IMG/VR virus record: IMGVR_UViG_2713896899_000007
Span: 7,041 to 71,040 of that record
Direction: 5' to 3' (one strand)
From: a virus
Taxonomy: Duplodnaviria; Heunggongvirae; Uroviricota; Caudoviricetes
DNA length: 64,000 nt
Shown here: piece by piece, positions 17,103-50,210 of the stretch
Position numbering within the stretch: the stretch's first letter is position 1
Layout: the number at the start of each line of letters is the position of its first letter
Notes under the pieces: generated by a model
Database searches by the model: none
What the model was told of the DNA's origin: nothing
Seen by the model: the letters and a program-made list of their open reading frames with translations, nothing else
Made by a program: the position numbers and the translations under genes

Positions 17103-18359
17103 CTATCTAGAACCACCAAGAATAACACGGTTTTTGACTGGATACCTACGATGTACTGGATAGCCCAATGCGTCTGCACTATGCTCAATGCCACCTGTCT
17201 TATCCATATCTCGTGTTCCAGGCTTGTAGATGACTTTTTCCAGTGAATCAATCAAATGCTTGCACTTCGGATCGATATACAACCGGATATCTCCAGATGC
17301 GGTCATCAGCATTCGGTTAACAGCATTAACACGATCCGCAATTGGCGGGTGCTTTTTCGAATAATCGACACGTAAGAATCCCTTCTCTTTGAAAATGTCG
17401 ACGTCAGACTCCCCGCGAGCATGTTGGCGATAAGCACCTGCCGGATCTGGAAATACCGTTATCTGTGATTTCCAGCGCCAGAAGCGTCTCTCAAGCTCAT
17501 CACAAACCTCTGCCGTGTTAGAGGAAAAGAGCACCAATTCATCAATTGCCCATAGCTCACCATTTGGCTGAGGTTGCAAAATTACTGAAGACATCGGGTC
17601 AATGTTGAAGTCCTGCCCTACCCATATAGGCAACCGAGGGTTGAACTGAAGCGGTTTTACATGCACGTTACGATCGAACGGGTAGTAAACGCGCCCGGAC
17701 ATGTTCTCAAAGCTCGCCAGGTACTCCTGAGCGAACGATTTCGGGTCCATATCGTTCTTAGCAGCTTCAATTTCCGCCGTAGGTACAAACGGAGAATCGG
17801 CAGTTACAAACTGCCAGCTCTTCCACTGTCCCTTTCTTTGCAGCTCTACGTTCTGGCCTATAGTCCACAGTTTGTGAAATTCCGAGAAGCCTTTTGGCGT
17901 ACCAATGATCAGTGCACCGCCGCGTGTCGATGAAAGAGTAGGTCGTAACACCTTGTACCAGGTGTCAGCCTTCATATCCTGAAATTCATCAAGCACTACA
18001 AAATGCAACGCTACGCCGCGCAGAGTGTCAGGCTTATCAGCACCTTTGAGGGCGATCTCCGAACCGTTCTTCAACACGATTGTCATCGTGGTGTCGTTCT
18101 TTTTCCTAACCCACTTACGAGGCAGAACTTCCTGTAGATCGTCCCACAAAATCTGGCGAGCCATCTGGTAAGTAGGAGCGACATACCAGACTCTTTGCTT
18201 TTTTTCCTTTGCCGCCGCACGAATAATAGTGGAGATCGACAACCGGGATTTTCCCCAGCGTCGACCAGCACAAACAACTTTAAATCGATGCGGAGACTGG
18301 AAGACTTTCATCTGTCCAGAATGCAGTTGCACAAGACTGAGCGAGGACGGGATTGCCAT
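17103..18359 (-). CDS. terminase large subunit
   Basis: Walker A GRRWGKS and Walker B HFVVLDEF, with a C-terminal nuclease-like half. ATGA overlap with the upstream gene. Confidence 0.9.
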   Translation of the reverse strand: MAIPSSLSLVQLHSGQMKVFQSPHRFKVVCAGRRWGKSRLSISTIIRAAAKEKKQRVWYVAPTYQMARQILWDDLQEVLPRKWVRKKNDTTMTIVLKNGSEIALKGADKPDTLRGVALHFVVLDEFQDMKADTWYKVLRPTLSSTRGGALIIGTPKGFSEFHKLWTIGQNVELQRKGQWKSWQFVTADSPFVPTAEIEAAKNDMDPKSFAQEYLASFENMSGRVYYPFDRNVHVKPLQFNPRLPIWVGQDFNIDPMSSVILQPQPNGELWAIDELVLFSSNTAEVCDELERRFWRWKSQITVFPDPAGAYRQHARGESDVDIFKEKGFLRVDYSKKHPPIADRVNAVNRMLMTASGDIRLYIDPKCKHLIDSLEKVIYKPGTRDMDKTGGIEHSADALGYPVHRRYPVKNRVILGGSR

Positions 18360-18991
18360 TATTCGTCCTCCCCTTCACTTCCATCATCTGTCGCATCAAA
18401 TTCGCTTAGAGCTTCTTCTTCCAACGTCTCAAGCAATTCGTCATCGATGATTTCAGGCTCGTCGTCTTCCTGACGTAATTTCGCCACCTGGGAAGGCGTA
18501 AGCTCACCAAATACCAGGTTCGGAATTTCTTCCTCGTCATTTTCAGCATGATCCATGCCCAATGCTTTGGACGAAACTTCAAAGCATTTTGCAAGGGTAT
18601 TACTGGCTCTCTGTAAGCTCTTGAGAGAATCCTCAATCGCCCCTAAAGGCTTACCATCACGTTTGGCCGTAGTGACTTCGACCATCACCATCTGCCCCAA
18701 CGCATACGCCCAGCCGTCATAACGTGTACGACGTTCTTCTATCTTTTCCGCACGGGCTTTAGCGCGAAGCTCTGCGTCAGATTTAAGAGACTCACGAACC
18801 ATCTTCCCAACAGAGTCCGCGCCTTTCTCTAATCCTCGCTTTTTGAAATGTCTGGAGAGTGTTTCACGACGAATGCCGTACTCTTCCTCCAGCTTTGAGA
18901 GTGTATATTCGCCTGACGTCCATTTGGCTTCAGCTTCGGCCCACTCCGCTGGTGTCAGGCGAGTTTTTACCTCGTCTTTTTCGACCGTCAT
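18359..18991 (-). CDS. terminase small subunit (HTH, acidic tail)
   Basis: N-terminal HTH-like YTLSKLEEEYGIRRETLSRHFKKRG and an acidic C-terminus. Translationally coupled to TerL. Confidence 0.65.
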   Translation of the reverse strand: MTVEKDEVKTRLTPAEWAEAEAKWTSGEYTLSKLEEEYGIRRETLSRHFKKRGLEKGADSVGKMVRESLKSDAELRAKARAEKIEERRTRYDGWAYALGQMVMVEVTTAKRDGKPLGAIEDSLKSLQRASNTLAKCFEVSSKALGMDHAENDEEEIPNLVFGELTPSQVAKLRQEDDEPEIIDDELLETLEEEALSEFDATDDGSEGEDE

Positions 18992-19086
18992 AGATCCCTC
19001 TAAAACACACAGAGCGCGTCCATGCGCTCTAAAACAACTTGTTTACTGCGTATGCTAACCAACTTGTTTTCTGGGGTGTTTAATTA

Positions 19087-19185
19087 GGTCTGGGCATGTC
19101 TTACTAAGCCTGCTTCCGTATATATTTAATAAGTTACTTATTATTTATATATACGGAAGCAGGTCTTTAAATAAGCTCCCAGACC
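19087..19185. repeat. nested inverted repeat (17-bp perfect arms inside 8-bp outer arms)
   Basis: cctgcttccgtatatat (19109-19125) pairs with atatatacggaagcagg (19147-19163). Outer arms are ggtctggg (19088-19095) and cccagacc (19178-19185). A second copy lies at 50158-50210. Confidence 0.85.
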
Positions 19186-19187
19186 GA

Positions 19188-19454
19188 TTACATCACCAGT
19201 AACTTCGCTTTGGCTCGACCTAAAGTGGTTAACCCAAGAGTCCGGCGGTGATAGCGATTGTCACTGCGTTGGCGCGTATGCCCTTTCTCCACCAGCCCCT
19301 TTTTTATCAGAGCGCGAATTGAGAACTGAATACTTTGCTTGGTTGTCTTGTACGGCAAAACTTCAAGCAATTCGTCCAGATCAAGTAGATGACCTCGCTC
19401 ATAACCGAGATTGAGCGTTTTGATGATGTCCTTTTGTTTATCGGTTAACGTCAT
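19188..19454 (-). CDS. small winged-helix-like DNA-binding protein
   Basis: 88 aa. TTKQSIQFSIRALIKKGLVEK resembles an HTH-wing. Last gene of the ParB operon. Confidence 0.5.
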   Translation of the reverse strand: MTLTDKQKDIIKTLNLGYERGHLLDLDELLEVLPYKTTKQSIQFSIRALIKKGLVEKGHTRQRSDNRYHRRTLGLTTLGRAKAKLLVM

Positions 19455-19463
19455 GGCAAATCC

Positions 19464-20354
19464 TTATGCCGGTAAAGCAATTTCTAACGGTTTATCCAAA
19501 GGTTGTTTGTCGAATGCCAGCAGTGGCAGCGTGTCAGGCAGTCGACGACCAAAGTCAGGGTTTCGATACACACCATACAACGGAGACGTAAAGCTCAGGT
19601 TGTGAATGTCCTTGAGCAGCTTCACAATGCTGGCCTCGTCCACCAGACTGTCGGCAATGTCCTGAATCGTCGTGCCACGATTCCGCCCAGCTTTTGCCAG
19701 GGAACTGTTCTTGTGGTAGTCCGCCACCAGATCACGCAGTGCACGGCGACGACGAGACTCGCTCATTGCGAACAACTCTTTGACGATCGCCTCGTTATCA
19801 CCCGGGTCAGAACGGAAATGGCGCTGGAATACACGCAGTGCACTTTCATAGCTCTTCGGTCGCTCAGGGCGGATGAACTTAAACCCCGCTTTCATGGCGA
19901 AGGGATTGTATTTGCTCATCGAGGACTGGATCTCAATGATTGGCCGGTCATGCATCCTGCTAACCAGGTTAATCATTCGATAAGAGACGCCTACGCCACG
20001 ATACTGAGTATCCACAACTGAGCGACTGATCACCGCAAAGTTGTTATTCACGTACCGACCCCAGTACTGGTTAGCCACGGTGGTATTAGTGGTTGGTTTC
20101 AACTTAGGAAACATGCGGTGGCGAGGTGCCAACAGTAGTTTCGGGTAAGCCATAACCACGACGCCCACCAGACGGTCATCAAGTTCGCAGCGATAGTAAG
20201 TTGGCGCGAAAGGTTTGCCGTCTGTTTTGTAGTGAAGCGACTTAAGAGCGTGCCAGTCCTCTACAGTTCCCTTTGTAACAGTCATTCGCTCCAGAAAGTC
20301 CAGATGACGCGGAAACTCTTCAGGGCGGTAGCGTTTAATGATGATGTCCGTCAT
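19464..20354 (-). CDS. GNAT-like acetyltransferase-domain protein
   Basis: VVDTQYRGVGVSYRMI fits the GNAT Q/RxxGxG/A acetyl-CoA loop. 296 aa. ATGA-coupled to the upstream ATPase. Confidence 0.5.
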   Translation of the reverse strand: MTDIIIKRYRPEEFPRHLDFLERMTVTKGTVEDWHALKSLHYKTDGKPFAPTYYRCELDDRLVGVVVMAYPKLLLAPRHRMFPKLKPTTNTTVANQYWGRYVNNNFAVISRSVVDTQYRGVGVSYRMINLVSRMHDRPIIEIQSSMSKYNPFAMKAGFKFIRPERPKSYESALRVFQRHFRSDPGDNEAIVKELFAMSESRRRRALRDLVADYHKNSSLAKAGRNRGTTIQDIADSLVDEASIVKLLKDIHNLSFTSPLYGVYRNPDFGRRLPDTLPLLAFDKQPLDKPLEIALPA

Positions 20355-21016
20355 GAATGGACCTCATCGTGACTACCATTGTGATATTCCACCTTCACGC
20401 GTTCTTTGTAGTGCTTGGTGATCTGCATATCCGGGCGCAGCGCGTTCTTCAGGTCTTCGTGAGTCGTCGCCACCATTACCGTCGCACCAACCTTTCGAGC
20501 GGCACGCTGGAGGTTAGACGCCACAACCTGAGCGGTTACACGGTCGAGAACAGCGCCGAACTCGTCAGCAGCCCACACTTTAGCGTCTGACTCAATCAGT
20601 TTGGCAATCTTGAGACGATATTTCTGGCCGTCTGACATTTCAGAAGGCTTGCGAACAAACAGATATGCATCGTTCAGACCAGCCATAGATAACAACCCAA
20701 GCGCATCACTGGTCGTTTTGCCCAACTGATCGATGACGTTAACCTCATTATCGAAGGTAAAATCATCGATGGAGGCTACAGACAGCCCTTCATCCTTCAT
20801 CTGTCGTTGCAACTCGCGCAGCACAACGGATTTGCCGGAACCGGATTGGCCGGTGATGTACACCACATCGCCCTGCTTCACTTCCAGCTCCAGATTGTCG
20901 TAAAGCGTCCACTCTTTTTCGTCCAGGCCAAGCCCGAACGACTCAGCGATTTCCAATGTGCGCGTGGTTTTATTTACGCGTGTCTGAAACGATACGTTGA
21001 TGATGTATTTGCTCAT
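20351..21016 (-). CDS. ABC-type ATPase (stand-alone nucleotide-binding domain)
   Basis: Walker A GQSGSGKS, signature MSDGQKYRL, Walker B VWAADEF. Confidence 0.8.
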   Translation of the reverse strand: MSKYIINVSFQTRVNKTTRTLEIAESFGLGLDEKEWTLYDNLELEVKQGDVVYITGQSGSGKSVVLRELQRQMKDEGLSVASIDDFTFDNEVNVIDQLGKTTSDALGLLSMAGLNDAYLFVRKPSEMSDGQKYRLKIAKLIESDAKVWAADEFGAVLDRVTAQVVASNLQRAARKVGATVMVATTHEDLKNALRPDMQITKHYKERVKVEYHNGSHDEVHS

Positions 21017-21681
21017 GCAGCCATCTCCCCGGAAGAGATCTTCTCCGCATATGCCACAAATGCGTCTACCCCGCTTTCTCCCGTCATTTCTTCCATGTGG
21101 GCAAGCAAATCACCAACAACAATGGCAGAGCCAGCAGGGAGCGTTTTAAAGCCCAATACGTCGACAACACGTACTTCTTCCGCTGCAACTTCACGACTGA
21201 TCTCGGTGTGTTCATCCTTCTGTCGTTTAGTTTCTTCGCCAAGATCGATAACTAGCGAGTCGGTGTCCATTTCTTCTGTCATACTGCCAACGAGAACATT
21301 CAACTCACGCTCTTCAAAGCCGAAAACCTCGATATCGTCCAGAACAAGCGACTCAAGCTCTTTCTGTAGCTTAATTGCATCGTAATCAATGCTGGCAAGT
21401 CGGTTATCTTCAAGGCGCTTCGCACGAACCTCGTCATCACTGAGATCATCGCGAACAATAACCGGTACGCGCTCAAGTCCAGCAAAAATTGCAGCCTCAC
21501 GGCGGCCGTGGCCAGTAATAATTACGTCGTTCTTATCGACCGTAATTGGCTGGTCAAATCCGCGCTTTTTAATGGCTGCGGCTAGATCTCGGATCTGCTG
21601 TTCATCATGCTTTTTGGCATTCATCTCATAGGGAATAAGATCTGCCGGGTCGCGATATACGATTTCAAACTTTTTGGTCAT
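21013..21681 (-). CDS. ParB-like nuclease (ParB/Srx) domain protein
   Basis: ITGHGRREAAIFAGLERVPVIV motif. ATG 21681 overlaps the upstream TAA (TAATG). Confidence 0.8.
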   Translation of the reverse strand: MTKKFEIVYRDPADLIPYEMNAKKHDEQQIRDLAAAIKKRGFDQPITVDKNDVIITGHGRREAAIFAGLERVPVIVRDDLSDDEVRAKRLEDNRLASIDYDAIKLQKELESLVLDDIEVFGFEERELNVLVGSMTEEMDTDSLVIDLGEETKRQKDEHTEISREVAAEEVRVVDVLGFKTLPAGSAIVVGDLLAHMEEMTGESGVDAFVAYAEKISSGEMAA

Positions 21682-22361
21682 TACATACGCTCCTTGTAGT
21701 AGTCGACCAGCCACACCAGAGCCTCACCAGCGTTCTCCATTTCATTACCGGTGTTAATAGCCTGCTCTTTGATGATGTTTTTTATGGTTTCTGCAACACG
21801 ATCTGACGCATCGAAAGTTACTTTGAAGCGCATGGTCTGATGTTCCGCACCCACACGTTCGGTTTTCTCCCGTTTGTCGGTATCGACAGGCTCATCACTA
21901 CCACGAGACAACGCCTCCAGTGCTTCAAGGTCGATTGCCGCCTCTTTTGCTAAAACCATCGAGATTTCGTCGTCATACGGGGCGATTTCAGACAGTTGAT
22001 AGTCAAGTTCTGACTGAATTTCTTCAATGAAGCGTTGCAATGCGATTTGGTCGTCTTCACCGTATCGCTCGTTGTCCACCAGTGACATCTGTTTTGCCAC
22101 GACATCGCTAATTTTGCCCACAGAAAGCACCGGAACCGTTGAAATTCCTTGCTCAATAGCAGCACGCCAGCGATGTTCGCCGCCGAGGATTTCAAAAAAT
22201 CCATCTTCAAGTTCACGAGCCAAAATTGGCTTAAAAAAGCCCAATTTTTCGATAGAACCTTTCAGTTTTTCAAAATTCTGCGCACCAACCGAATTGGTGT
22301 TCCAGGTATTCGGGCGAAGGTTGGCAACATCAACCTGCAAAATCGTGATTTTTACATCCAT
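21681..22361 (-). CDS. ParB-like nuclease (ParB/Srx) domain protein
   Basis: ILGGEHRWRAAIEQGISTVPVLSV motif. ATG 22361 is preferred over GTG 22379. Confidence 0.8.
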   Translation of the reverse strand: MDVKITILQVDVANLRPNTWNTNSVGAQNFEKLKGSIEKLGFFKPILARELEDGFFEILGGEHRWRAAIEQGISTVPVLSVGKISDVVAKQMSLVDNERYGEDDQIALQRFIEEIQSELDYQLSEIAPYDDEISMVLAKEAAIDLEALEALSRGSDEPVDTDKREKTERVGAEHQTMRFKVTFDASDRVAETIKNIIKEQAINTGNEMENAGEALVWLVDYYKERM

Positions 22362-22379
22362 TTTATTGCTACAATCCAC

Positions 22380-22397
22380 TAAGTAACTGCTTACTTA
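22380..22397. promoter_or_regulatory. TAAGTA-type palindrome in divergent promoter region
   Basis: TAAGTAActgcTTACTTA is immediately followed by TATAAT (22397-22402), between the parB-like gene and the helicase gene. Confidence 0.6.
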
Positions 22398-22443
22398 TTA
22401 TAATAGCCAAATAACATACAAAAGGCACTAAGGAAAGAGGTTT

Positions 22444-24003
22444 ATGACTGTTCGGATTGTATCTAACGCAGTTAATGCGCTTATTTCTGGCGCAGATGAC
22501 AAGGTAAAGCAACTGGTGCAGCAAATGTTGAGCTACGAAGTCGAGACTGGCGACTGGAAGGGCACAAGCACGATGTTCAACTGGAGTAAAAACTCGTTCC
22601 CTGCTGGCTTTGCCAAGCCTGTAGCGGCGAACTTGAACAAGGCGGGCATCAAATGTGTTCATATCCGCAAAGACAAAGCCCCGGCGCTTGGTAAACCAAA
22701 TCCGGCGGTTAACCCATTCCCATACAATCCTGATTATGCGTATCAGGATCAGACTGTGGAAACACTGGTTCGAGAGGGAATGATGATTGCGCAGATCGCT
22801 ACTGGTGGCGGGAAATCTAACGTTGCCTGCAAAGCAGCTGCACGTATCGGTCGAATGACATTATTTTTAACAACCCGCTCTGTTCTGATGTTTCAAATGG
22901 CCGAAAACTTCCAGAGATCCATCGACTACCGCGCCGAAAATGGCGAACCGTGGTTAAAAGACCAAAAGGTTGGAGTCATTGGCTCGGGTGAGTTCCAGGT
23001 ATCACGACATATCAACGTCGCTACAGTTCAAACTCTTGCAAGTTTCCTCGAAGAACCACCACGCGATGCAACACCAGATAAGAAAAGCTACCACCTCAAA
23101 CGTCGGGAGTTGGTGAAACGCTTCCTTTCAAGTGTCTCTCTTCTTATTCTGGAAGAGGCGCATGAGTCTTCAGGCTCAAATTTCTATGACATCGCCAGAT
23201 TATGTGTGAACGCAGACTATCGTCTGGCGCTTACAGCCACGCCGTTCATGAAGGATTCGACGGAAGCCAACATGCGCCTGATGGCGGTGGCCGGGCGAAT
23301 TGAAATTAAAGTCACAGAAAAGTACCTGATTGATCGAGGCATTCTGGCAAAGCCGTACTTCCTTTATCATAAAGTTGCCTACAAACCAGACGAGGCCAGA
23401 ATCAAGGCAGAACTTGCCAACAAACACCTCAATTTTAGAGTAGGTATGAGTACTGCCTACCAAAAGGCTTATCAGTTGGGGATCGTGTATAATTTGGGAC
23501 GTAACGAGGCCATTGTTCGCGAAGCATTGCTCTATAAGCAACATTCTCTCAATTGTATGACTCTGGTTCGCCTTAAACGCCACGGGCAAATCCTGATGGA
23601 AATGATGAAAGAGTCCGGCCTTAGAGTTGACTTCATCTATGGGGAATCTAACCAGGCGACAAGGCAAGCAAAGCTGAACAGTTTAGCGTCTGGAGAAATA
23701 GATGTTTTAATAGGCTCGACTATTCTGGATGTCGGTGTTGATGTGCCAAGCGTTGGTGCGGTCATTCTTGCTGGTGGTGGGAAAGCAGAAGTTGAAATGA
23801 GGCAGCGTGTCGGTCGTGGCTTACGAGCCAAGAAGAATCAGGCAAACGTGTGTTTTATCACTGATTTCATTGACACTAGCAACAAATACCTGTTGTCTCA
23901 CTCTTATGAGCGAAAACACATCATCGACACCACACCTGGCTTTGCAGAAGGTGTATTGCCTATTGATGGCGCATTCGATTTTGGAGTTCTGAAACGAGAT
24001 TAG
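22444..24003 (+). CDS. SF2 DEAD/DEAH-box helicase
   Basis: Motif I ATGGGKS, motif II LILEEAHE, motif III LTATP, motif VI QRVGRGLR. AAGGAAAGAGG RBS. Confidence 0.85.
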   Translation: MTVRIVSNAVNALISGADDKVKQLVQQMLSYEVETGDWKGTSTMFNWSKNSFPAGFAKPVAANLNKAGIKCVHIRKDKAPALGKPNPAVNPFPYNPDYAYQDQTVETLVREGMMIAQIATGGGKSNVACKAAARIGRMTLFLTTRSVLMFQMAENFQRSIDYRAENGEPWLKDQKVGVIGSGEFQVSRHINVATVQTLASFLEEPPRDATPDKKSYHLKRRELVKRFLSSVSLLILEEAHESSGSNFYDIARLCVNADYRLALTATPFMKDSTEANMRLMAVAGRIEIKVTEKYLIDRGILAKPYFLYHKVAYKPDEARIKAELANKHLNFRVGMSTAYQKAYQLGIVYNLGRNEAIVREALLYKQHSLNCMTLVRLKRHGQILMEMMKESGLRVDFIYGESNQATRQAKLNSLASGEIDVLIGSTILDVGVDVPSVGAVILAGGGKAEVEMRQRVGRGLRAKKNQANVCFITDFIDTSNKYLLSHSYERKHIIDTTPGFAEGVLPIDGAFDFGVLKRD

Positions 24004-24005
24004 TT

Positions 24006-24284
24006 ATGAGCGAAAAGAAAACAACTTATTGCCAAGTGGCATTGTCTGATAAGGCCAATGAAAAACTTGGAAAATTTCAAATAAAACTCAAAGAGAAAAA
24101 AATCAAGATGTCTAAGGCTGAAGTTATCAATGCCATTCTGGAGACGATGACTATGGCTGAATTTGACAAAGTCACATCTGCCGTTGGGGTTTCCGCTAAG
24201 ACGCGTGAGAAAATCATGCGCATCTATGAAAACTCCAATATGACAAAAAAAGATCTAGAGGAAATACTGAGCAGGTTGCCGTAA
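24006..24284 (+). CDS. small hypothetical protein (possible ribbon-helix-helix)
   Basis: 92 aa. Starts 2 nt after the helicase stop. KMSKAEVINAILE resembles an RHH helix. AT-rich. Confidence 0.4.
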   Translation: MSEKKTTYCQVALSDKANEKLGKFQIKLKEKKIKMSKAEVINAILETMTMAEFDKVTSAVGVSAKTREKIMRIYENSNMTKKDLEEILSRLP

Positions 24285-24349
24285 CATTTCATATTTACCC
24301 CCTATCAACTAATTCTATGATGTGCTCACTTGTTAGAAAGGAGCACATC

Positions 24350-24916
24350 ATGAGTTGGTTAAAAGAATTATCATTTGTTGACACCACTGGCGCTAAGAAA
24401 AATCATTCTTTCTGGAAAGTCAGCGATCCTTCTGATTTTCTTGTTGGTGCTAATGCTGCTTTTGAATTGCTTAACTTTTATCAACGTTATCCTGAAATGA
24501 AACACAGTCCACTCCTGTACAGAATAACAAACGATATGAATAGGTCTGGTTTATTATCAAGTGAGTCAGCGAAAGGCTTTTTTAGCAAAATTACGCCACA
24601 CATATCATTCGATGCAGCAAACGAAATTGATTGTCTATCCACGAAACCTCAAGAACAATTATCTGTACCACCTGAGAAAAAACAAAGACGAATTGCCAGC
24701 ATTGAAAATATATCGAAAGAGCTTCGCACAACAACGTTGAGGCTGCTGAACTTTCTTACGCTACTTAATTGGATAGATGATCAAACATTGATTCCATCAA
24801 CCGATGCGTTGGATAACAGAGTACTTAGGCTGAACAAAAAATCGCAATTTGGTTTTGTGTTCACCAAAAAAGGTGAAGATTTAATCAAAAGAAAATATAG
24901 ATTATTGAATGATTAA
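24350..24916 (+). CDS. hypothetical protein
   Basis: ATG 24350 has an AGGAG RBS. Followed by hairpin acatgcaggtg...cacctgcatgt. No recognisable domain. Confidence 0.55.
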   Translation: MSWLKELSFVDTTGAKKNHSFWKVSDPSDFLVGANAAFELLNFYQRYPEMKHSPLLYRITNDMNRSGLLSSESAKGFFSKITPHISFDAANEIDCLSTKPQEQLSVPPEKKQRRIASIENISKELRTTTLRLLNFLTLLNWIDDQTLIPSTDALDNRVLRLNKKSQFGFVFTKKGEDLIKRKYRLLND

Positions 24917-25061
24917 TAGTCTACATGCAGGTGTATGAGAGCACCTGCATGTGATATTCATCACATTTTTTGAAGTACACACCTCCGGCTGAAAAAATTT
25001 CTTGATTGGCAGAACGATATTTGTAGGCTTTTCAATTGATAACTAAGGTCGGATACTGTAG

Positions 25062-25550
25062 ATGAGTATTTCCATAAACAAAATAATTAACTCTTTACGA
25101 CATAAAATATCACATGGAAAAGATGTTCTTTTTAAAGACAAATATTATCTATTCAACCTAGAGTTGTACAAATGCACAAAATTTTATATCACTCGGAACC
25201 GTAAATATTCAGCTTCAATCACAAAAGACATGAAGAAAATCTCTTCAGAAGAGTACTTCATATCACATATTTATATCTACCCATTTAAATTAGAACCATT
25301 AAATATAATTCTTCCAACAATAAAAGGGGTTGAACTTGAAGGTTATACTTTAAGCTCTAACTTTAATGATATGGGTGTACAAAAACCAGGGACAAGGTCA
25401 TACTACGCCTACAAAGTAAAATGCAATAACTACAACGCACTTAACATGCTAATCAGCAAACTTGAAACGGAGATAGTCGAAGGAAATCTAAATGATGATC
25501 ATGAAAAATTAGAACAAATAGAAAAACTTAGAAAGTGTGATGTTAAATAA
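25062..25550 (+). CDS. hypothetical protein (Lys/Asn/Ile/Tyr-rich)
   Basis: 162 aa ORF, first gene of a 3-gene AT-rich operon. Confidence 0.5.
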   Translation: MSISINKIINSLRHKISHGKDVLFKDKYYLFNLELYKCTKFYITRNRKYSASITKDMKKISSEEYFISHIYIYPFKLEPLNIILPTIKGVELEGYTLSSNFNDMGVQKPGTRSYYAYKVKCNNYNALNMLISKLETEIVEGNLNDDHEKLEQIEKLRKCDVK

Positions 25551-25565
25551 TTGGATTATCATGAT

Positions 25566-26165
25566 ATGAAAATGAAAATTTCGTTACTCCTTGCTTGTAT
25601 ATGCCTCCCGGCGTTTTCCGCCAACGCATTATCAGATTTCGTCTCTGACATGCAAAAAACGTACAGCATGTTTACCTCCGAAGACGTAGTAGAATACAAA
25701 TCACGAGGTCTGAATCAGCCAGTTTGGTTCAGATTCTCAGACAACGCAGAAGAAACAATACTTAATGGAGGAAAAGAAAGATTACGGTTGCAAATTAACG
25801 GGACCGCTGTACCAGAAAACGTTAATGTAAACTCTGACGAAGCCATGAAGCCATCTGGAATTGTTTTAGAAGTTCAAGACGGCACACTTTACTGTGATGA
25901 AATGGCTACAACAGGTTGCCAAGTAAACATTAGGGTTGGCAATGAAGAGCCTATCGTTACTTACGCCAAGGCTGAAGGGAATACAAGTGGAAAGGTATTG
26001 TTTATCGATGAAAATATCTCAAAACGTATCGTTCGTGACATACAGAAAACAGCTAACTCTAAATCCGTCGATAAAAAAATCTATGTTGAGGTTCCCTTCT
26101 TTGTCGTTGGTAACAAAGAATTTAAATTTGGGTTGCTGAAAACACCTCTAAGAGTATCAGAATGA
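25566..26165 (+). CDS. secreted/periplasmic hypothetical protein
   Basis: The N-terminus MKMKISLLLACICLPAFSANA looks like a Sec signal peptide. ATG 25566 is preferred over TTG 25551. Confidence 0.6.
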   Translation: MKMKISLLLACICLPAFSANALSDFVSDMQKTYSMFTSEDVVEYKSRGLNQPVWFRFSDNAEETILNGGKERLRLQINGTAVPENVNVNSDEAMKPSGIVLEVQDGTLYCDEMATTGCQVNIRVGNEEPIVTYAKAEGNTSGKVLFIDENISKRIVRDIQKTANSKSVDKKIYVEVPFFVVGNKEFKFGLLKTPLRVSE

Positions 26166-26686
26166 GAACATTGGACATCACCTACGGCATACCGGCTGAA
26201 GTCTGGCCGCGAGACTACGAACATGCTGAAAACATACTTATGTTCTGGCGGAAGAACAACATTCCTGTAAGAGTCACGCTTGAAGACGGTCAGGTGTTTT
26301 GCATGTACGTTCAGGGGACAATGCCTTCCCGCAATAAGCTAGATTTATGCCCGCTTCCATATGATAAAGAAAATCGTATAAGACTCCCACTTGAGCGCAT
26401 TAGCACAATTGAATCAGGTGTAATCGATGGCATTGCTCGCGAGTTCAAAGGTAGGCTAACAATACATCCAGACTATGTTGACAATCAGCCATCACGCCGT
26501 GACTTTTTTGCGATATGTCGCAAGGCTTATCAAAACGACCAATCTATAAGGGTCTACATGGCAGACGGTCGTGAAATTGAAGGGGTGTCAAGAGGCGTTG
26601 ATGCTTGCCAGGTCACTCTTAAGTTAGAAGACGGCAGAAAAATACTTGTTTTCTTCGATTGGGTTGAACGAATCCTTCCATTTTAA
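26162..26686 (+). CDS. hypothetical protein with two Sm/LSm-like repeats (pattern level only)
   Basis: ATGA overlap with the upstream gene. VRVTLEDGQVF..YVQG and IRVYMADGREIEGVSRGVDACQVTLKLEDGRKILVFFDWVERI fit the Sm-fold pattern V.V.L.dG..i.G...g.D...l.L. Confidence 0.5.
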   Translation: MRTLDITYGIPAEVWPRDYEHAENILMFWRKNNIPVRVTLEDGQVFCMYVQGTMPSRNKLDLCPLPYDKENRIRLPLERISTIESGVIDGIAREFKGRLTIHPDYVDNQPSRRDFFAICRKAYQNDQSIRVYMADGREIEGVSRGVDACQVTLKLEDGRKILVFFDWVERILPF

Positions 26687-26697
26687 ATCTATAAGGG

Positions 26698-26728
26698 TAA
26701 TAACCGGCTAAGCCCGGTTATTATTTTA
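26698..26728 (+). terminator. rho-independent terminator
   Basis: gtaataaccgg / ccggttattat stem followed by a T-run. Confidence 0.75.
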
Positions 26729-26878
26729 CATGCCATTCATTTAAAACTCTTTCAATGCCACTCTGTATAAATATATAAGGTTAAAGGCCCGAATTGATTA
26801 TTTATTTAGGGAACACCTTCGACGATCTCGCTTTTATTTCTAGGACTTTCACCCCTGCAAAAAATTTAAAAAAAACAC

Positions 26879-26906
26879 TTGCAATCTTTTTTCACGTATC
26901 GATAAT
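26879..26906 (+). promoter_or_regulatory. sigma70-type promoter (TTGCAA-16 nt-GATAAT)
   Basis: Read directly from the sequence. About 70 nt upstream of the 26982 start, in an AT-rich gap. Confidence 0.55.
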
Positions 26907-26981
26907 TGAACTCGTCGAAAGCGAGCTGGCTAACGACAGTAAAAAATAAATTCATTTTAATTTTTCGTAAGGATGTCCATC

Positions 26982-27632
26982 ATGGCTAACATTATCATTT
27001 CTAAAAAATCCATCATTGAAGCTGCTTCCATTGTATCCGATGAACTGCGCGAAAAAGCAGATCTGGCAACTCAAACATATAACGAACATTATAAAAATGG
27101 TACGCACACTAAAGCAGACAAAGCAAATATGCAAGCTGCGACCACTAAACTTGCTTACTTCATCAACAACGTCGTAAACGCAGTAGAAGACGAAAAATTA
27201 TGCTCTGTTTTCTACTATGCGATTAAAGCAAGCAAACAAGCGCCAGAAGTATTTTTCCGTGATGCTATGACTAATAGTTATTCACTGGAAAAACTGGTTT
27301 ATCTGGTTAAATCCATTAAAGCTGGTAAATGCGTTTATTCCGTCGCTGATATGTCAGGATCTCGTGTATTCGCTTTAATCGATATGATTAACGACGAGAT
27401 CGACACGTTCACCAATGGCGCTGTTTTCGATTTAATGAATGAAGCTAAAAAAGCGTGCGAAATTAAATTGGACGCTGGCTATACTCAAGCCAACCAGTTG
27501 ATCAATCTTTGCGAACGTCTCGGACTTGTTGAAAAAGTCAAAGGAGCTGGGAGCGCCAAAGCTGGTACGCAGCAATATCGCTTCATTAAAAATGATTTCT
27601 ACAATTATTTAGCTGATGCTTTTAAAGCGTAA
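26982..27632 (+). CDS. hypothetical protein (possible C-terminal winged helix)
   Basis: ATG 26982 lies 8 nt after AAGGA. 216 aa. YTQANQLINLCERLGLVEKVKG is HTH-like. Confidence 0.55.
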   Translation: MANIIISKKSIIEAASIVSDELREKADLATQTYNEHYKNGTHTKADKANMQAATTKLAYFINNVVNAVEDEKLCSVFYYAIKASKQAPEVFFRDAMTNSYSLEKLVYLVKSIKAGKCVYSVADMSGSRVFALIDMINDEIDTFTNGAVFDLMNEAKKACEIKLDAGYTQANQLINLCERLGLVEKVKGAGSAKAGTQQYRFIKNDFYNYLADAFKA

Positions 27633-27681
27633 TTAATGAAATCAAGCGCCCACTATGGGCGCTTTAAAGGAGCTTTCAAAA

Positions 27682-27885
27682 ATGGTCAGCTATGACAAGA
27701 TCCGCGCGGAATATCGCGCAAAGTATCGCGCTTATAAACTGGAATTAATCGACGATTTGATCGCGCAACGCGACCAATTAAATTTTACGTTTTCTGATTT
27801 GCTTAACAGTAAACGAGATTGTAAGCGTAAGCGTGAATATTTACGTTTAAGCGCATTAATCGGAAAACTTCAAAATTCTATTTAA
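27682..27885 (+). CDS. small basic coiled-coil hypothetical protein
   Basis: ATG 27682 follows an AAGGAG RBS. The track start at 27655 lies inside a hairpin. Confidence 0.45.
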   Translation: MVSYDKIRAEYRAKYRAYKLELIDDLIAQRDQLNFTFSDLLNSKRDCKRKREYLRLSALIGKLQNSI

Positions 27886-27905
27886 TTTTTTTAAGGAGCT
27901 TAATC

Positions 27906-28133
27906 ATGGTTATTTTCATCTCTGGCGTAAATATCAATAATCATACTCTTGTTTATGATATTGCTGGTTTAGCTGGATATGCTCTAAGTTCTGAAGTGGT
28001 TGATGAAACAACGTTTAAAATAAACATCAATGACGTAGAACATAGAGCGCGCGTAGGAATCAATGAAGCTGATGTTACTTTAATGCTTCAAGAATTTTTA
28101 AACGCTGGCTTTAATATTCACTTAGAAAAATAA
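27906..28133 (+). CDS. small hypothetical protein
   Basis: 75 aa, AAGGAG RBS, followed by a strong terminator. Confidence 0.5.
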   Translation: MVIFISGVNINNHTLVYDIAGLAGYALSSEVVDETTFKININDVEHRARVGINEADVTLMLQEFLNAGFNIHLEK

Positions 28134-33517: not shown

Positions 33518-33636
33518 TACTGTGTAAATCAGAAGGGATTGTGTCTATATGAAAATGCCCGGCGTGTTGCCGGGCATTGCGAAGAGAGGTTGTTTAATTA
33601 CTTAACCTGGTGGCCAGGTTTAGCACCGGCATCCGG
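33496..33636 (-). repeat. diverged copy of metG 3' end (12 codons + stop) + terminator + phage palindrome
   Basis: Aligns without gaps to 34364-34504 with 18 mismatches. The remnant encodes [12 protein letters not shown]. Confidence 0.9.
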
Positions 33637-34315
33637 CTGCAGGATGGGAGGTTACGTTCGCGCTATGTTGATATTCTGATTGACGCCATTTGTGCCAAAT
33701 CATCTCCTTATAGGATTCATATTGCGTTCGGTACTCTGGCTTCAAGTCAGATATGCCTTTATTCACTACCGCTCGTACGTTTACTAATAATTCGTGCTCA
33801 ATGCCTTTACTCTCTAAATATTCTACAACACCAGCATCGGGGCCAATTGCCCTGCCGTTAAAGACCATTTCCAGCATAAGCTCTGTTTCAGCAAAATAGA
33901 TAGGTGAGGAACCAGGTGCACACAGCTTAATAGCAGTAAGATTGTCCAACAGGTCGGCCAATTTAATCATTCGCGTCTGCATATCCAACGTCTTTTGCAA
34001 TTCGCGAACATTAATAATGAATCTCGCAAGACTATCGCCGTCGTCTGGTTTGGCAACGTTTGCCAGCGCCAGTACCATCTCAGCTACACGATTCCCGAAA
34101 TACTCGCGTACCATTTCGATAGTGATATGGGTATCTTCAATAACACCATGTAATAATGCAGCAGCCTGCATTTCGACAGTGCCTCCGTGCCAAGCAACAA
34201 TCTCACGCACAGAAACTGGGTGTGTAACGTAGTCTTCCCCCGTATATCTACGCTTCTTACCTACACCACCATACACTCCAACGGCAAACATATGAGCTTT
34301 ATCAACAATCGACAT
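33620..34315 (-). CDS. HD-domain (SpoT/Mesh1-like alarmone hydrolase family) protein, HD motif changed to HG
   Basis: GEDYVTHPVSVREIV...AALLHGVIEDT. Paralog of 42687..43328. ATG 34315 has a GGAG RBS. The C-terminal tail runs into the metG remnant. Confidence 0.75.
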   Translation of the reverse strand: MSIVDKAHMFAVGVYGGVGKKRRYTGEDYVTHPVSVREIVAWHGGTVEMQAAALLHGVIEDTHITIEMVREYFGNRVAEMVLALANVAKPDDGDSLARFIINVRELQKTLDMQTRMIKLADLLDNLTAIKLCAPGSSPIYFAETELMLEMVFNGRAIGPDAGVVEYLESKGIEHELLVNVRAVVNKGISDLKPEYRTQYESYKEMIWHKWRQSEYQHSANVTSHPAAGCRC

Positions 34316-34363
34316 AATTTGCTCCATTATTTTGTTAATACTGTTACTCTAACTGATAATAGA

Positions 34364-34504
34364 ACGCAGAAAACAAATTGTTTTAGGGGCTGAGTAAATC
34401 AGAAGGGATTGCGTCTATATGAAAATGCCCAGCAATACGCTGGGCATTGTGAAGAATGGTTGTTTAGTTACTTAACTTGGTGGCCTGGTTTAGCACCAGC
34501 ATCC
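34364..34504 (-). repeat. phage palindrome + metG terminator + metG 3' end (partner of 33496-33636)
   Basis: See the alignment for the partner repeat. The terminator stem is aatgcccagc/gctgggcatt (34422-34446). Confidence 0.9.
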
Positions 34505-36501
34505 GGGCTTAACAGGAAGATATCTTTCCCGCCGGGGCCAGCAGCCATCACCATGCCTTCGGAGATACCGAAGCGCATTTTACGCGGAGCCAGGTTAGCC
34601 ACCATAATTGTGTGACGACCAATCAGTGCCTGTGGGTCTGGATAAGCAGAACGGATGCCTGAGAAGACATTACGCTTTTCACCACCGAGATCCAGTGTCA
34701 GGCGCAACAGTTTGTCAGAACCTTCAACAAACTCCGCGTTTTCAATCAGCGCCACACGCAGGTCAACTTTGGCGAAGTCGTCAAAGGTGATGGTTTCCTG
34801 AATCGGGTCGTCAGCCAGTGGGCCAGTAACTGGCGCGGCAGTAGCTTTCACTTCTTCTTTGGATGCTTCCACCAGTGCTTCCACCTGTTTCATATCGATA
34901 CGGTTATACAGTGCCTTGAACGGATTCACTTTATGGCCCAGCAGCGGTTGCTGGATACCATCCCAGGTCAGTTCTGTATTCAGGAATGCTTCTGCACGTT
35001 CAGTCAGTTTCGGCAGTACCGGTTTCAGATACGTCATCAGCACGCGGAACAGGTTAATGCCCATAGAGCAAATCGCCTGCAGATCTGCATCGCGACCTTC
35101 CTGCTTCGCCACCACCCACGGAGCCTGTTCATCGACATAGCGGTTAGCCAGGTCAGCCAATGCCATGATTTCACGGATAGCTTTACCAAATTCGCGGCTT
35201 TCCCATGCTTCGCCAATCACTTCAGCGGCATCAGTAAAGGTTTTGTACAGTTGCGGGTCAGCCAGTTCGCTTGCCAGCACGCCGTCAAAACGCTTGTTGA
35301 TAAAGCCTGCATTACGGGAGGCCAGGTTAACCACTTTGTTAACAATATCGGCATTCACTCGCTGAACGAAATCCTCCAGGTTGAGATCGATATCATCAAT
35401 GCGCGAAGAGAGTTTCGCAGTGTAGTAGTAACGCAGGCTGTCAGCGTCAAAATGATTCAGCCAGGTGCTGGCTTTAATAAAGGTGCCGCGAGACTTGGAC
35501 ATCTTCGCACCGTTCACCGTCACATAGCCATGAACAAACAGGTTGGTCGGCTTGCGGAAGTTGCTGCCTTCCAGCATGGCAGGCCAGAACAGACTGTGGA
35601 AGTAAACGATATCTTTACCGATGAAGTGGTACAGCTCGGCGGTGGAGTCTTTCTTCCAGTATTCATCGAAGCTGGTGGTATCGCCGCGCTTGTCGCACAG
35701 ATTCTTGAAGGAACCCATGTAGCCAATCGGTGCGTCCAGCCAGACGTAGAAATATTTACCCGGCGCGTTCGGAATTTCAAAACCGAAGTAAGGTGCGTCG
35801 CGGGAGATATCCCACTGTTGCAGACCAGATTCAAACCACTCCTGCATTTTGTTTGCCACCTGCTCCTGCAACGCACCGCTGCGGGTCCATGCCTGCAACA
35901 TTTCGCTGAAAGAGGGCAGATCAAAGAAGAAGTGTTCAGAATCACGCATTACCGGGGTAGCACCAGAAACCACCGATTTCGGCTCGATCAGTTCAGTCGG
36001 GCTGTAGGTCGCGCCACAAACTTCACAGTTATCGCCGTATTGATCTGGCGCTTTACATTTCGGGCAGGTGCCTTTCACAAAACGATCCGGCAGGAACATG
36101 CCTTTTTCCGGGTCGTACAACTGAGAGATAGTGCGGTTTTTAATAAAACCGTTCTCTTTCAGGCGAGTATAAATAAGCTCAGACAGCTGGCGGTTCTCTT
36201 CGCTGTGCGTCGAGTGATAGTTGTCATAGCTGATGTTAAAGCCTGCGAAATCAGTCTGGTGTTCCTGACTCATTTCGCCAATCATCTGCTCCGGTGTGAT
36301 ACCAAGTTGCTGTGCTTTCAGCATGATCGGCGTACCGTGGGCATCGTCGGCACAGATGAAATTAACCTCGTGGCCGCGCATTCGCTGGTAACGAACCCAG
36401 ACATCAGCCTGGATGTGCTCCAGCATATGGCCGAGGTGGATTGAGCCGTTAGCGTACGGCAGCGCGCACGTCACCAGAATTTTCTTCGCGACTTGGGTCA
36501 T
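34468..36501 (-). CDS. metG: methionine--tRNA ligase
   Basis: 677 codons from ATG 36501 ([25 protein letters not shown]...KMSKS...). Near-identical to E. coli MetG as I recall it. The 43-codon upstream extension in the track is spurious. Confidence 0.97.
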
Positions 36502-36658
36502 AGTAGGCATTACTTCTTTGTAGTGAAAAGGGGCTTGATAGTAACAAAATGGCCTTATGTCTGCCATGTGATAACAGCATTTCTCATAAATGATTAAATG
36601 TCGTAGCTGGAGTACACTACAAGGCGACAATTGCGCAAATTAAAATAAAGGAGACGGG

Positions 36659-37759
36659 ATGAGCGAGTCCAAATCGCCGGATGCCCTGAGAGCAATGGTA
36701 GCCGGTACGCTGGCTAATTTTCAGCACCCAACCCTGAAACACAACCTGACTACGCTTAAAGCGTTACACCATGTTGCGTTGATGGATGACACACTGCATG
36801 TCGAACTAATCATGCCTTTCGTGTGGAATAAGCCTTTTGAAGACCTGAAAGAGCAATGTAGTGGTGATCTGCTCCGTATCACTGGCGCAAAGGCTATTGA
36901 CTGGAAGCTGTCGTACAACATTGCCACGCTTAAGCGCGTCAAAAACCAACCAGGCATTAATGGTGTTAAGAATATTATCGCCGTAAGCTCAGGCAAGGGC
37001 GGTGTAGGCAAATCGTCCACAGCAGTAAACTTGGCACTGGCGTTGGCTGCTGAAGGTGCGAAAGTTGGTATTTTGGATGCCGATATCTACGGGCCATCAA
37101 TACCAACCATGCTGGGCGCGGAAAACCAACGTCCAACCTCACCGGACGGTACTCACATGGCACCTATCATGTCTCATGGCCTGGCAACCAATTCAATTGG
37201 CTATCTGGTCACCGACGACAATGCAATGGTGTGGCGTGGACCGATGGCCAGCAAGGCGCTGATGCAGATGTTGCAGGAAACACTGTGGCCTGATCTGGAC
37301 TATCTCGTTCTCGATATGCCGCCGGGCACTGGTGATATTCAGTTGACGCTGGCGCAGAACATTCCTGTAACTGGTGCGGTTGTGGTAACTACGCCGCAAG
37401 ACATCGCGCTGATCGATGCGAAGAAAGGCATTGTGATGTTCGAAAAAGTCGAAGTGCCAGTACTGGGTATCGTTGAAAACATGAGTGTGCATATTTGCAG
37501 TAACTGCGGTCATCACGAGCCAATTTTTGGCACCGGTGGCGCACAGAAACTGGCCGAGAAATACAACACGCAGTTGTTAGGCCAAATGCCACTTCATATC
37601 TCTCTTCGTGAAGATCTGGATAACGGAACACCAACCGTTATTAGTCGTCCAGATAGTGAATTTACGGCTATTTATCGTGACCTCGCAGATCGCGTTGCTG
37701 CCCAAATGTATTGGCAAGGTGAAGTAATACCTGGCGAAATCGCATTCCGCGCAGTGTGA
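36659..37759 (+). CDS. apbC: Fe-S cluster carrier ATPase Mrp/ApbC
   Basis: AVSSGKGGVGKSS P-loop and a CSNCGHH motif. Divergent from metG as in the E. coli chromosome. Confidence 0.95.
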   Translation: MSESKSPDALRAMVAGTLANFQHPTLKHNLTTLKALHHVALMDDTLHVELIMPFVWNKPFEDLKEQCSGDLLRITGAKAIDWKLSYNIATLKRVKNQPGINGVKNIIAVSSGKGGVGKSSTAVNLALALAAEGAKVGILDADIYGPSIPTMLGAENQRPTSPDGTHMAPIMSHGLATNSIGYLVTDDNAMVWRGPMASKALMQMLQETLWPDLDYLVLDMPPGTGDIQLTLAQNIPVTGAVVVTTPQDIALIDAKKGIVMFEKVEVPVLGIVENMSVHICSNCGHHEPIFGTGGAQKLAEKYNTQLLGQMPLHISLREDLDNGTPTVISRPDSEFTAIYRDLADRVAAQMYWQGEVIPGEIAFRAV

Positions 37760-37762
37760 TAA

Positions 37763-37787
37763 AAAGGTGGTGCATTGCACCACCTAA
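37763..37787. terminator. bidirectional hairpin between mrp and humD-like gene
   Basis: aggtggtgca t tgcaccacct. Confidence 0.6.
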
Positions 37788-37796
37788 ACAGTTCTC

Positions 37797-38186
37797 CTAC
37801 ATCACAGGACAATCATCAAACTCGCCACTTCTTGCGTCGTTGATAATGTGAGTGATCACACCAAACACGGCATTGCTGCCCGTGCATCCATCGTCATCCT
37901 TTGGCAATGCTTCCTTCTTACCAGTTCTTAAATCCTCCAGATGCTGACGTGGATACTTCCGGTATCTTTTTACGCGATATTCCCCATCCAGAGCGCATAC
38001 AAGCAGAGAACCATCAACCGGGGTAAGTGAGGAATCGACCACCAGCAATGCGCCCTGCAATATTCCCTCACGATGATGGCTGTCAGCCGCTCTCATGAAG
38101 TAGGTCGCTGAAGGATGTCTAATTATCTGCTGATCAAGAGAAATACGGCTCTCAGCATAATCCGCCGCAGGAGAAGGGAAGCCCAT
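37797..38186 (-). CDS. humD: UmuD'-like S24 peptidase-fold protein lacking the cleavable N-terminus (phage P1 HumD-like)
   Basis: Starts MGFPSPAADY, which aligns to the residues just after the UmuD Cys24-Gly25 cleavage site. The Ser (ADSH) and Lys (VKRY) positions are retained. A LexA box lies upstream. Confidence 0.8.
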   Translation of the reverse strand: MGFPSPAADYAESRISLDQQIIRHPSATYFMRAADSHHREGILQGALLVVDSSLTPVDGSLLVCALDGEYRVKRYRKYPRQHLEDLRTGKKEALPKDDDGCTGSNAVFGVITHIINDARSGEFDDCPVM

Positions 38187-50157: not shown

Positions 50158-50210
50158 CCTGCTTCCGTATATTAATAATTAATATGTAGTTATTTATATA
50201 CAGAAGCAGG
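50158..50210. repeat. second copy of the cctgcttccgtatat inverted repeat
   Basis: 15-bp arms with 1 mismatch. ggtctggga lies upstream at 50131, as in the first copy at 19087. Confidence 0.8.

Follow-up and report, generated by a model that had tools for sequence, protein, structure and literature searches.

What do two ParB-like proteins, a stand-alone ABC ATPase domain, a GNAT-like protein and a small winged-helix protein do together, immediately upstream of the terminase genes of a tailed virus? The question is raised by a 64,000-nucleotide stretch of a caudoviral genome (IMG/VR record IMGVR_UViG_2713896899_000007, positions 7,041 to 71,040; hereafter, the window), in which five genes with this composition lie at 19188-22379. 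This 3.2-kb region shares 99% identity with Escherichia phage Cyrano, 85% with Salmonella phage SSU5 and 100% with the Escherichia coli plasmid p009_B (position 43985 of the plasmid being window position 1), and 772 plasmid records match it; on account of these matches, the window is considered part of an SSU5-like phage-plasmid. A previous reading of the sequence, made without database searches, had proposed three candidate roles for the five genes, namely partition or condensation in the plasmid state, modification of DNA or nucleotides, and assistance to packaging. Among these, modification is best supported by the present analysis, whereas partition or condensation is unsupported. Our preferred interpretation, to which we assign a probability of about 0.4, is that the five genes would encode an acyltransferase, driven by ATP and assisted by ParB proteins, that marks phage DNA after its replication and ahead of packaging.

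Composition, conservation and natural fusions of the module

The open reading frame (ORF) check confirmed all five minus-strand ORFs expected at 19188-22379. In the order of transcription, they are:

21681..22361, minus strand: ParB-a, 226 amino acids (aa); the ORF can be extended to a GTG at 22379
21013..21681, minus strand: ParB-b, 222 aa
20351..21016, minus strand: stand-alone ABC nucleotide-binding domain, 221 aa
19464..20354, minus strand: predicted acyltransferase with an enlarged, basic GNAT fold, 296 aa
19188..19454, minus strand: winged-helix (MarR/PadR-like) protein, basic, 88 aa

Each of the five proteins matches a phage family (PHROGs 723, 930, 293, 886 and 900). The sequence-only reading had made the case for a module depend on co-occurrence in other genomes, and the genes do co-occur. 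We fetched 80 diverse viral loci and scored their six-frame ORFs with hidden Markov models built from the window proteins; 58 loci had 4.5 kb or more of sequence upstream and 3.5 kb or more downstream and were counted, and in the distant loci the GNAT-like protein is ~40-50% identical to that of the window. The order helicase<>ParB-ParB-ABC-GNAT-winged helix-TerS-TerL, with the helicase divergent and the module followed by the small (TerS) and large (TerL) terminase subunits, is identical in 58 of the 58 loci, so that the winged-helix gene is invariably the last of the module; the portal gene comes next in 56 loci, and a single locus encodes three ParB proteins instead of two. The same neighbourhood is present in Ectothiorhodospira and two metagenomic contigs (GNAT 42-45% identical), and in Pseudomonas phage nickie and Rhizobium phage RHph_N1_15, which are among the conserved viral loci. 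In reference genomes, members of the family come from Alpha- and Gammaproteobacteria, frequently on contigs of 100-118 kb.

Stops and starts had been described as overlapping throughout the operon, which is accurate for three of the four junctions. ParB-a and ParB-b meet in TAATG (TAA 21683-21681, ATG 21681-21679), whereas ATGA is shared by stop and start both between ParB-b and ABC (21016-21013) and between ABC and GNAT (20354-20351). At the fourth junction, the GNAT stop TAA (19466-19464) is separated by a gap of 9 nucleotides (nt), GGATTTGCC, from the ATG of the winged-helix gene at 19454. The outer GTG start (22379) previously assigned to ParB-a is less probable than the ATG at 22361 (226 aa), which is also the start annotated in Cyrano; ParB-b likely starts at ATG 21681 (222 aa). 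Small variable ORFs often intervene between the module genes in relatives, including SSU5 and the Klebsiella phage pJN2-26, where an extra ORF of 84 or 183 aa separates ABC from GNAT. The set and order of the module genes stay fixed, but because of such interruptions the translational coupling is a local trait.

The two ParB-fold assignments were upheld by matches to Pfam ParB_N (PF02195; E = 3e-13 for ParB-a and 1e-8 for ParB-b). The proteins are paralogous over their full length (hhalign, 99.3%, 198 columns) and are both acidic, with an isoelectric point (pI) of 4.5 (4.55 for ParB-a). ParB-a, which matches phrog_723 (E = 2e-79) and, in the PDB, Spo0J/ParB/Noc proteins (E = 3e-9 to 1e-5), consists of an N-terminal ParB/Srx nucleoside triphosphate (NTP)-binding domain followed by an acidic C-terminal half, and keeps the phosphate-loop motifs GGEHR and DNxRYG (68 homologues). 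The corresponding motifs of ParB-b, GHGRR and RLADN, are conserved as well. In addition to phrog_930 (E = 1e-112), ParB-b matches phrog_498, a ParB-methyltransferase family (E = 1e-31), and the N-terminal region of MTase_II in PADLOC (E = 3e-17), suggesting that its closest kin are the ParB domains fused to phage DNA methyltransferases. Neither ParB protein matches the HTH_ParB or ParB C-terminal domain of Pfam at E<=0.1, and the TIGR00180 score for ParB, 43 bits, is under the cut-off of 58. Both end in a conserved strand-helix-helix element (MRFKV..DAERI..NAGDALVHL and GFKRVT..SR.IR.FM..TGK.GA.AL), located at about residues 170-220 of ParB-a (window 21700-21850) and 170-215 of ParB-b (window 21030-21170). 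A likeness of this element to ribbon-helix-helix dimerisation or DNA-binding domains is a guess and stays one, because a PDB profile search with it returned no match.

The description of the third protein as a minimal ABC domain holds (Pfam ABC_tran, E = 3e-13; phrog_293, E = 2e-59; also phrog_11143). Its Walker A (GQSGSGKS), signature (LSDGQ), Walker B (DEF) and H-loop motifs are intact (76 homologues), and it is encoded without a membrane partner. The GNAT protein is strongly basic (pI 9.8), with a conserved fold and acyl-CoA loop and, judging from the order of the secondary structure elements, a helical insert of ~90 residues ahead of the last GNAT strands; a PDB sequence search seeded with it yielded noise only (AlkD, E~1). 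Given the conservation of the ABC motifs, the acyl-CoA loop and the ParB phosphate loops, the enzymes look active. As for the 88-aa protein, also strongly basic (pI 10.2) and matching phrog_900 (E = 2e-45), its identification as a winged-helix protein is borne out by a 23-homologue profile that matches the MarR-family protein ST1710 in the PDB (E = 2e-4).

The most informative evidence comes from gene fusions. A profile of the GNAT family recovered 881 representative proteins, many of which are 440-900 aa long and match in their C-terminal half; these long proteins bear an N-terminal ABC domain that is clearly orthologous to the window ABC. The window ABC and GNAT proteins are homologous, over their full length, to the N- and C-terminal halves of the fused proteins (e.g., P0183 and P0157), and the C-terminal strand [YF]x[IV][WY]xNPD of the window GNAT is likewise found in the C-terminal half of the fused family. 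Judged by these alignments, the two window genes, which are separate and joined by the ATGA overlap, are a split variant of a fused ABC-GNAT family (COG2401-type), a relationship absent from the sequence-only reading. A search seeded with one fused protein gave about 2,100 relatives, the majority from Bathyarchaeia, Nitrososphaeria and Methanocella and others from Firmicutes prophages; many carry the JGI label 'ABC-type ATPase with predicted acetyltransferase domain'.

Furthermore, about 50 clusters of proteins of 620-700 aa are triple fusions with the architecture ParB-Zn ribbon-ABC-GNAT, another point that had not been noticed before. Many of them carry precomputed PF02195 matches; our own Pfam scan left the N-terminal ParB domain unrecognised, although hhalign detects its relationship to the window ParB family (98% probability, E = 4e-14, 127 columns). 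Because ABC-GNAT and ParB-ABC-GNAT fusions exist in nature, the ABC, GNAT and ParB parts are probably tied together as one functional unit. In other fusions, a complete family-B DNA polymerase (PolB) and a Cys-rich linker precede the ABC-GNAT unit, or the unit is joined to a DnaA-like P-loop ATPase (phrog_5484); in the DnaA-like fusions, a possible PD-(D/E)xK-like motif was read by eye only. The unusual fusion proteins P0205, P0173, P0160, P0164 and P0154 include PolB fusions as well as proteins whose ABC domain is interrupted by an intein with a LAGLIDADG domain, or which carry TFIIB at the C-terminus.

Many of the fused genes adjoin TerL. Among 80 archaeal-type viral contigs, TerL is encoded directly upstream of the fused ABC-GNAT gene, on the same strand, in at least 39 of 77 cases, with a 4-nt overlap between the two genes in a Bathyarchaeia provirus. 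One locus (L251) is laid out like the window: an ASCH gene precedes a triple fusion, and a 181-aa ORF, TerL and a Mu-type portal come after it. In a Desulfofarcimen prophage, the fused gene is found five genes upstream of TerL, and in another phage it is located between DnaB and DNA polymerase III alpha (Pol III alpha). An ASCH gene adjoins the fused gene, usually in convergent orientation and abutting it, in 13 of the 54 archaeal loci with enough downstream sequence, and Pfam counts revealed no recurrent neighbour families of the fused genes besides TerL and ASCH.

Two side observations concern the same neighbourhoods. In the Desulfofarcimen acetoxidans prophage (L005/L088, 9542-11328), the fused gene is followed by genes for Amidoligase_2 and GGACT (gamma-glutamyl cyclotransferase) before TerL, and an Amidoligase_2 gene lies 3' of the fused gene in a second locus too. 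In addition, ~22 of the 80 archaeal-type contigs (L088-L167) stop within the fused gene or a few bases from its 3' end, and none stops at its 5' end; a nearby genome terminus, a hypervariable C-terminus and a variable downstream region are possible explanations.

Flanking DNA and the phage-plasmid context

The module is flanked by the following features:

22444..24003, plus strand: UvsW-like superfamily 2 helicase, divergent from the module (Pfam ResIII, DEAD, Helicase_C)
22362..22443: divergent intergenic region between the UvsW-like helicase and ParB-a, 82 nt
18992..19187: spacer from the module to TerS, 196 nt
18359-18991, minus strand: TerS (phrog_867; 'Terminase small subunit' in the Cyrano annotation)
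17103-18359, minus strand: TerL (Pfam Terminase_6N)

The position directly upstream of the terminase genes was thus correctly recognised from the sequence, the 196-nt spacer being followed by TerS, TerL and the portal gene. We regard the helicase as a conserved neighbour and not as a shown member of the module.

The spacer contains a perfect 16-nt inverted repeat (19110-19125 / 19147-19162), which could be a terminator or a regulatory hairpin and whose loop includes the palindrome TAAGTTACTTA. A second copy of the inverted repeat, with arms CTGCTTCCGTATAT.., is found at 50159-50209, and both copies are located just 3' of a minus-strand gene; the spacer of the first copy has 2-6 matching places per genome in related phages. 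Closer to the terminase, a terminator-like GC hairpin with a T-run (19031-19010) lies ~20 nt ahead of the TerS start codon. Transcription of the late (packaging) operon may thus pass through a terminator, which would suggest antitermination control.

At the other end of the module, the helicase/ParB-a intergenic region holds the palindrome TAAGTAACTGCTTACTTA (22380-22397). The pattern TAAGT-N(0-8)-ACTTA has 7 matches at six sites in the window (10090, 15581, 19130, 22380, 30692 and 55680), compared with 0.37 expected, and several of the sites fall in intergenic gaps. The palindrome core is retained at both ends of the operon in SSU5 and pJN2-26. We rejected the palindrome as an operon-specific element, given that the six sites are spread across the window; it is a candidate operator that a dimeric regulator, perhaps the winged-helix protein, would bind.

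Two further regions of the window were noted. A block of host-like genes (33620-38186) encodes a methionyl-tRNA synthetase of full length (34468-36630, minus strand) and the Fe-S carrier ApbC/Mrp (36659-37759, plus strand), together with an HD_4 protein and an S24 peptidase; at least 80% of the block is covered in 153 plasmid records, and about 190 records match at >=95% identity. The stretch 24000-28000, with a GC content of 36-39% compared with ~47% elsewhere, carries plus-strand ORFs without family matches and differs from Cyrano; it looks like an accessory region.

A putative acyl mark on phage DNA and the alternatives

Collectively, these lines of evidence converge on a putative DNA-associated, ATP-dependent acyltransferase helped by ParB-fold proteins. 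In the mechanism that we propose, the paralogous ParB-like proteins, probably paired, would act as NTP-binding activators or as DNA-residence factors. The ABC domain would dimerise on ATP and drive or gate the basic GNAT subunit on DNA, in a coupling that would resemble the way in which the ATPase domain of TmcA/NAT10 drives N4-acetylation of RNA cytidine. The GNAT subunit would transfer an acyl group, probably acetyl, from acyl-CoA onto the exocyclic amine of a base. Our leading guess for the acceptor is N4 of cytosine, because ASCH deacetylase genes adjoin the archaeal versions and because of the analogy with TmcA/NAT10. The winged-helix protein might regulate the operon or supply sequence targeting, the TAAGT..ACTTA palindromes flanking the operon. 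In its most specific form, which we put forward tentatively and consider improbable on balance, ParB-ABC-GNAT would be the writer of an unrecorded N-acyl DNA mark such as N4-acetyl-deoxycytidine, added with ATP to viral DNA between replication and packaging. The system would be ancient and distributed from archaeal tailed viruses, in which a single fused protein is encoded beside TerL and ASCH would be the eraser or reader, to the SSU5/pMT1/pHCM2 phage-plasmids of enterobacterial pathogens.

Several observations weigh against an acyl mark on DNA. The strict conservation of the module, kept in all 58 loci, fits core replication or packaging functions better than an accessory anti-restriction mark. 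We know of no modified base in SSU5-like phages and, to our knowledge, the sequencing of many SSU5-like plasmids has led to no reports of unusual base signals; in the plasmid state, the operon may be silent. The structural similarity of the window GNAT to Mom or TmcA is no greater than that to generic GNATs, no ASCH gene was seen in the SSU5-like group, and a phmmer search, seeded with the window ParB proteins only, did not detect ParB beside most of the fused ABC-GNAT genes. Finally, ASCH proteins are N4-acetylcytidine deacetylases (PMC6972931; bioRxiv 10.64898/2026.02.27.708502), with activity demonstrated on RNA and free nucleosides and not on DNA.

Several of the same facts would fit a packaging accessory, which we hold to be an unlikely explanation but a serious one. 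Under this scenario, the ParB pair binds near the packaging start, and ABC-GNAT remodels or acetylates the terminase, the portal or DNA-bound proteins and thereby clears or licenses the DNA for the terminase. The module is located directly upstream of TerS-TerL throughout the SSU5/nickie lineage, as it is of TerL in L251, its complete conservation resembles that of a core function, and the fused genes that adjoin TerL in archaeal-type contigs often overlap it stop to start; the contig stops around the 3' end of the fused gene would fit a nearby genome end. However, the inverted repeat and the terminator-like hairpin part the window module from TerS, a separate TerS is present, the upstream region of the module is shared with the helicase gene, and some fused genes belong to replication modules, with DnaB, Pol III alpha or PolB as neighbours. 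Nor do we know of any packaging system that employs a GNAT, which counts against this role. Moreover, proximity to the terminase is not peculiar to packaging factors, DNA-modification genes likewise clustering with terminases (PMC13229309).

A second alternative keeps the acyltransferase chemistry but moves it to proteins: for host takeover or anti-defence, ABC-GNAT would acetylate nucleoid proteins, defence nucleases or phage proteins, brought to DNA by the ParB proteins. This appears quite improbable. The module spans hosts as different as Enterobacterales, Pseudomonas, Rhizobium and Sphingomonas, with the fused form in Bathyarchaeia, so that a single host protein target is unlikely, and the ASCH linkage indicates acetylation of a base rather than of lysine.

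Somewhat less plausible still is a writer of N4-acetylcytidine in RNA (tRNA or rRNA), an analogue of TmcA/NAT10 that would retune translation during infection, with ASCH as the eraser in archaeal viruses. The combination of an ATPase with a GNAT follows the TmcA/NAT10 logic, and a metG copy is present in the window as well. The ASCH family, whose genes adjoin the fused ones, removes N4-acetylcytidine from tRNA (bioRxiv 10.64898/2026.02.27.708502). However, the associations with ParB, PolB, DnaA-like proteins and TerL are all related to DNA, and similarity to the tRNA-binding and helicase domains of TmcA was not detected.

The partition or condensation module that had been suggested for the prophage-plasmid state is very unlikely. 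Two ParB-family proteins on a phage-plasmid naturally call such a role to mind, and many related elements are plasmid-like contigs of 100-118 kb. Nevertheless, the module belongs to the core genes of nickie and RHph_N1_15, whose records are phage genomes, fused versions are also found in integrated proviruses, the ParB proteins are acidic and show no ParB helix-turn-helix domain, and neither the window nor any of the 58 loci has a ParA gene in the operon. A gene for a small ATPase of the ParA/MinD type (222 aa), with a 117-aa ORF after it, is found outside the window, ~31 kb away (plasmid NZ_CP048306.1, 31877-32904; L280), and is probably the real partition locus of the phage-plasmid, type Ib-like, which makes a partition role of the module unlikely.

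An addiction module of the TacT/AtaT kind, with the GNAT as toxin, the winged-helix protein as antitoxin and the ParB and ABC genes as chance neighbours, hardly deserves credence even though a GNAT gene does precede that of a small DNA-binding protein on a plasmid: typical GNAT toxin-antitoxin pairs have the reverse gene order, with a ribbon-helix-helix antitoxin upstream of a compact toxin of ~160-180 aa (TacT, AtaT, KacT) as against 296 aa with a large insert here, and the window GNAT is orthologous to the C-terminal half of ABC-fused proteins, matches no toxin family in PADLOC or NCBIfam, and is conserved in phages without a known plasmid state, fixed beside the terminase and always within the five-gene module.

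Whichever role is the right one, the module is a core component of a large lineage of siphoviruses and phage-plasmids of ~100-120 kb, SSU5-like plasmids being very common in E. coli, Klebsiella, Salmonella and Yersinia, and in archaeal viral contigs its fused relatives are among the genes most often found next to the large terminase. If the module does write an acyl mark on DNA, acyl-transfer chemistry with an ABC ATPase motor would join the known phage DNA modifications, the role of the ParB fold as a partner of DNA-modifying enzymes would be extended, and a DNA role would be suggested for the virus-encoded ASCH deacetylases. If it serves packaging instead, it would be an unrecognised component of the terminase system. 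Either way, the widespread misannotations of these genes as 'ABC transporter' and 'partition protein' are corrected.

Relation to known systems

That no characterised system has this composition, as the sequence-only reading had stated, agrees with our searches: PADLOC returned no system match, NCBIfam no specific family, and the literature nothing on the module in full-text searches for COG2401, for ATPase-acetyltransferase fusions together with terminase, or for SSU5 together with ParB/ABC. Partial likenesses to several systems are nevertheless apparent.

Mom of phage Mu, a GNAT-fold DNA adenine methylcarbamoylase, is a stand-alone protein not known to have ATPase or ParB partners, and the window GNAT matches it no better than it matches generic GNATs. 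TmcA/NAT10 (Kre33) similarly couples an NTPase to a GNAT and acetylates a nucleobase with acetyl-CoA and ATP, a reaction that ASCH reverses. TmcA, however, has a helicase-type P-loop domain and a tRNA-binding domain and acts on RNA, whereas the predicted substrate here is DNA; the window proteins show no similarity to the helicase, DUF1726 or tRNA-binding domains of TmcA, nor any specific fold relationship with it.

The Dnd system comprises the ParB-like DndB, the ABC-type DndD, a modifying enzyme and the small DNA-binding DndE (PMC10853773). Together with Dpd (DpdA/DpdB), it offers a parts list similar to that of the window, namely a ParB-fold NTPase, an ABC-class ATPase, a modifying enzyme and a small DNA-binding protein. 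In contrast, the window ABC is a minimal transporter-type domain without a coiled coil, and the module is a phage core module, not a cellular defence island. DndA/DndC, DpdA (TGT) and PP-loop enzymes are absent from the operon, and the only Dnd match in PADLOC is a weak P-loop hit to DndF (E = 0.002).

The COG2401-type family (MK0520-like; PHROGs 293, 886 and 11143) consists of two halves homologous to the window ABC and GNAT. Its members are fused and have no assigned function, whereas the window genes are split; the Cyrano record bears the family name, 'ABC-type ATPase fused to a predicted acetyltransferase domain'. We found no description in the literature of a linkage of this family to TerL, ParB or ASCH.

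The ParB proteins of the window lead to a further set of systems. ParB-domain methyltransferases are typically prophage genes located near packaging genes. Those of phages (phrog_498) have the N-terminal ParB domains nearest to window ParB-b, but carry a methyltransferase domain, in place of which the window module has a separate GNAT with an ABC ATPase. In a 2025 survey, ParB-CTPase folds were seen joined to DNA methyltransferases in phages and to ASCH and MT-A70 in archaea, while a bacterial protein in which the fold is fused to an acetyltransferase bound GTP (PMC12704722). Furthermore, phage ParB-like proteins that consist of an NTP-binding and a C-terminal domain and lack a DNA-binding domain are needed to activate thymine dioxygenases (T-dioxygenases) that act on DNA after replication (PNAS 2026, PMC13229309), and ParBs (27%) and terminases (19%) are among the domains that co-occur most frequently on T-dioxygenase contigs (PMC13229309). 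As in these 5mYOX-ParB modules, a ParB-fold protein without a DNA-binding domain is encoded in the window beside a putative modifying enzyme and near the terminase. The 5mYOX-ParB modules, however, combine an Fe/2OG dioxygenase with one ParB, as opposed to ABC and GNAT with two ParB paralogues, and none of the five window proteins matches a TET/JBP-type dioxygenase family. ParB-ABC-GNAT, an ancient and widespread module, is here regarded as a variant within the emerging class of ParB-assisted DNA-modification modules, its substrate and chemistry being putative.

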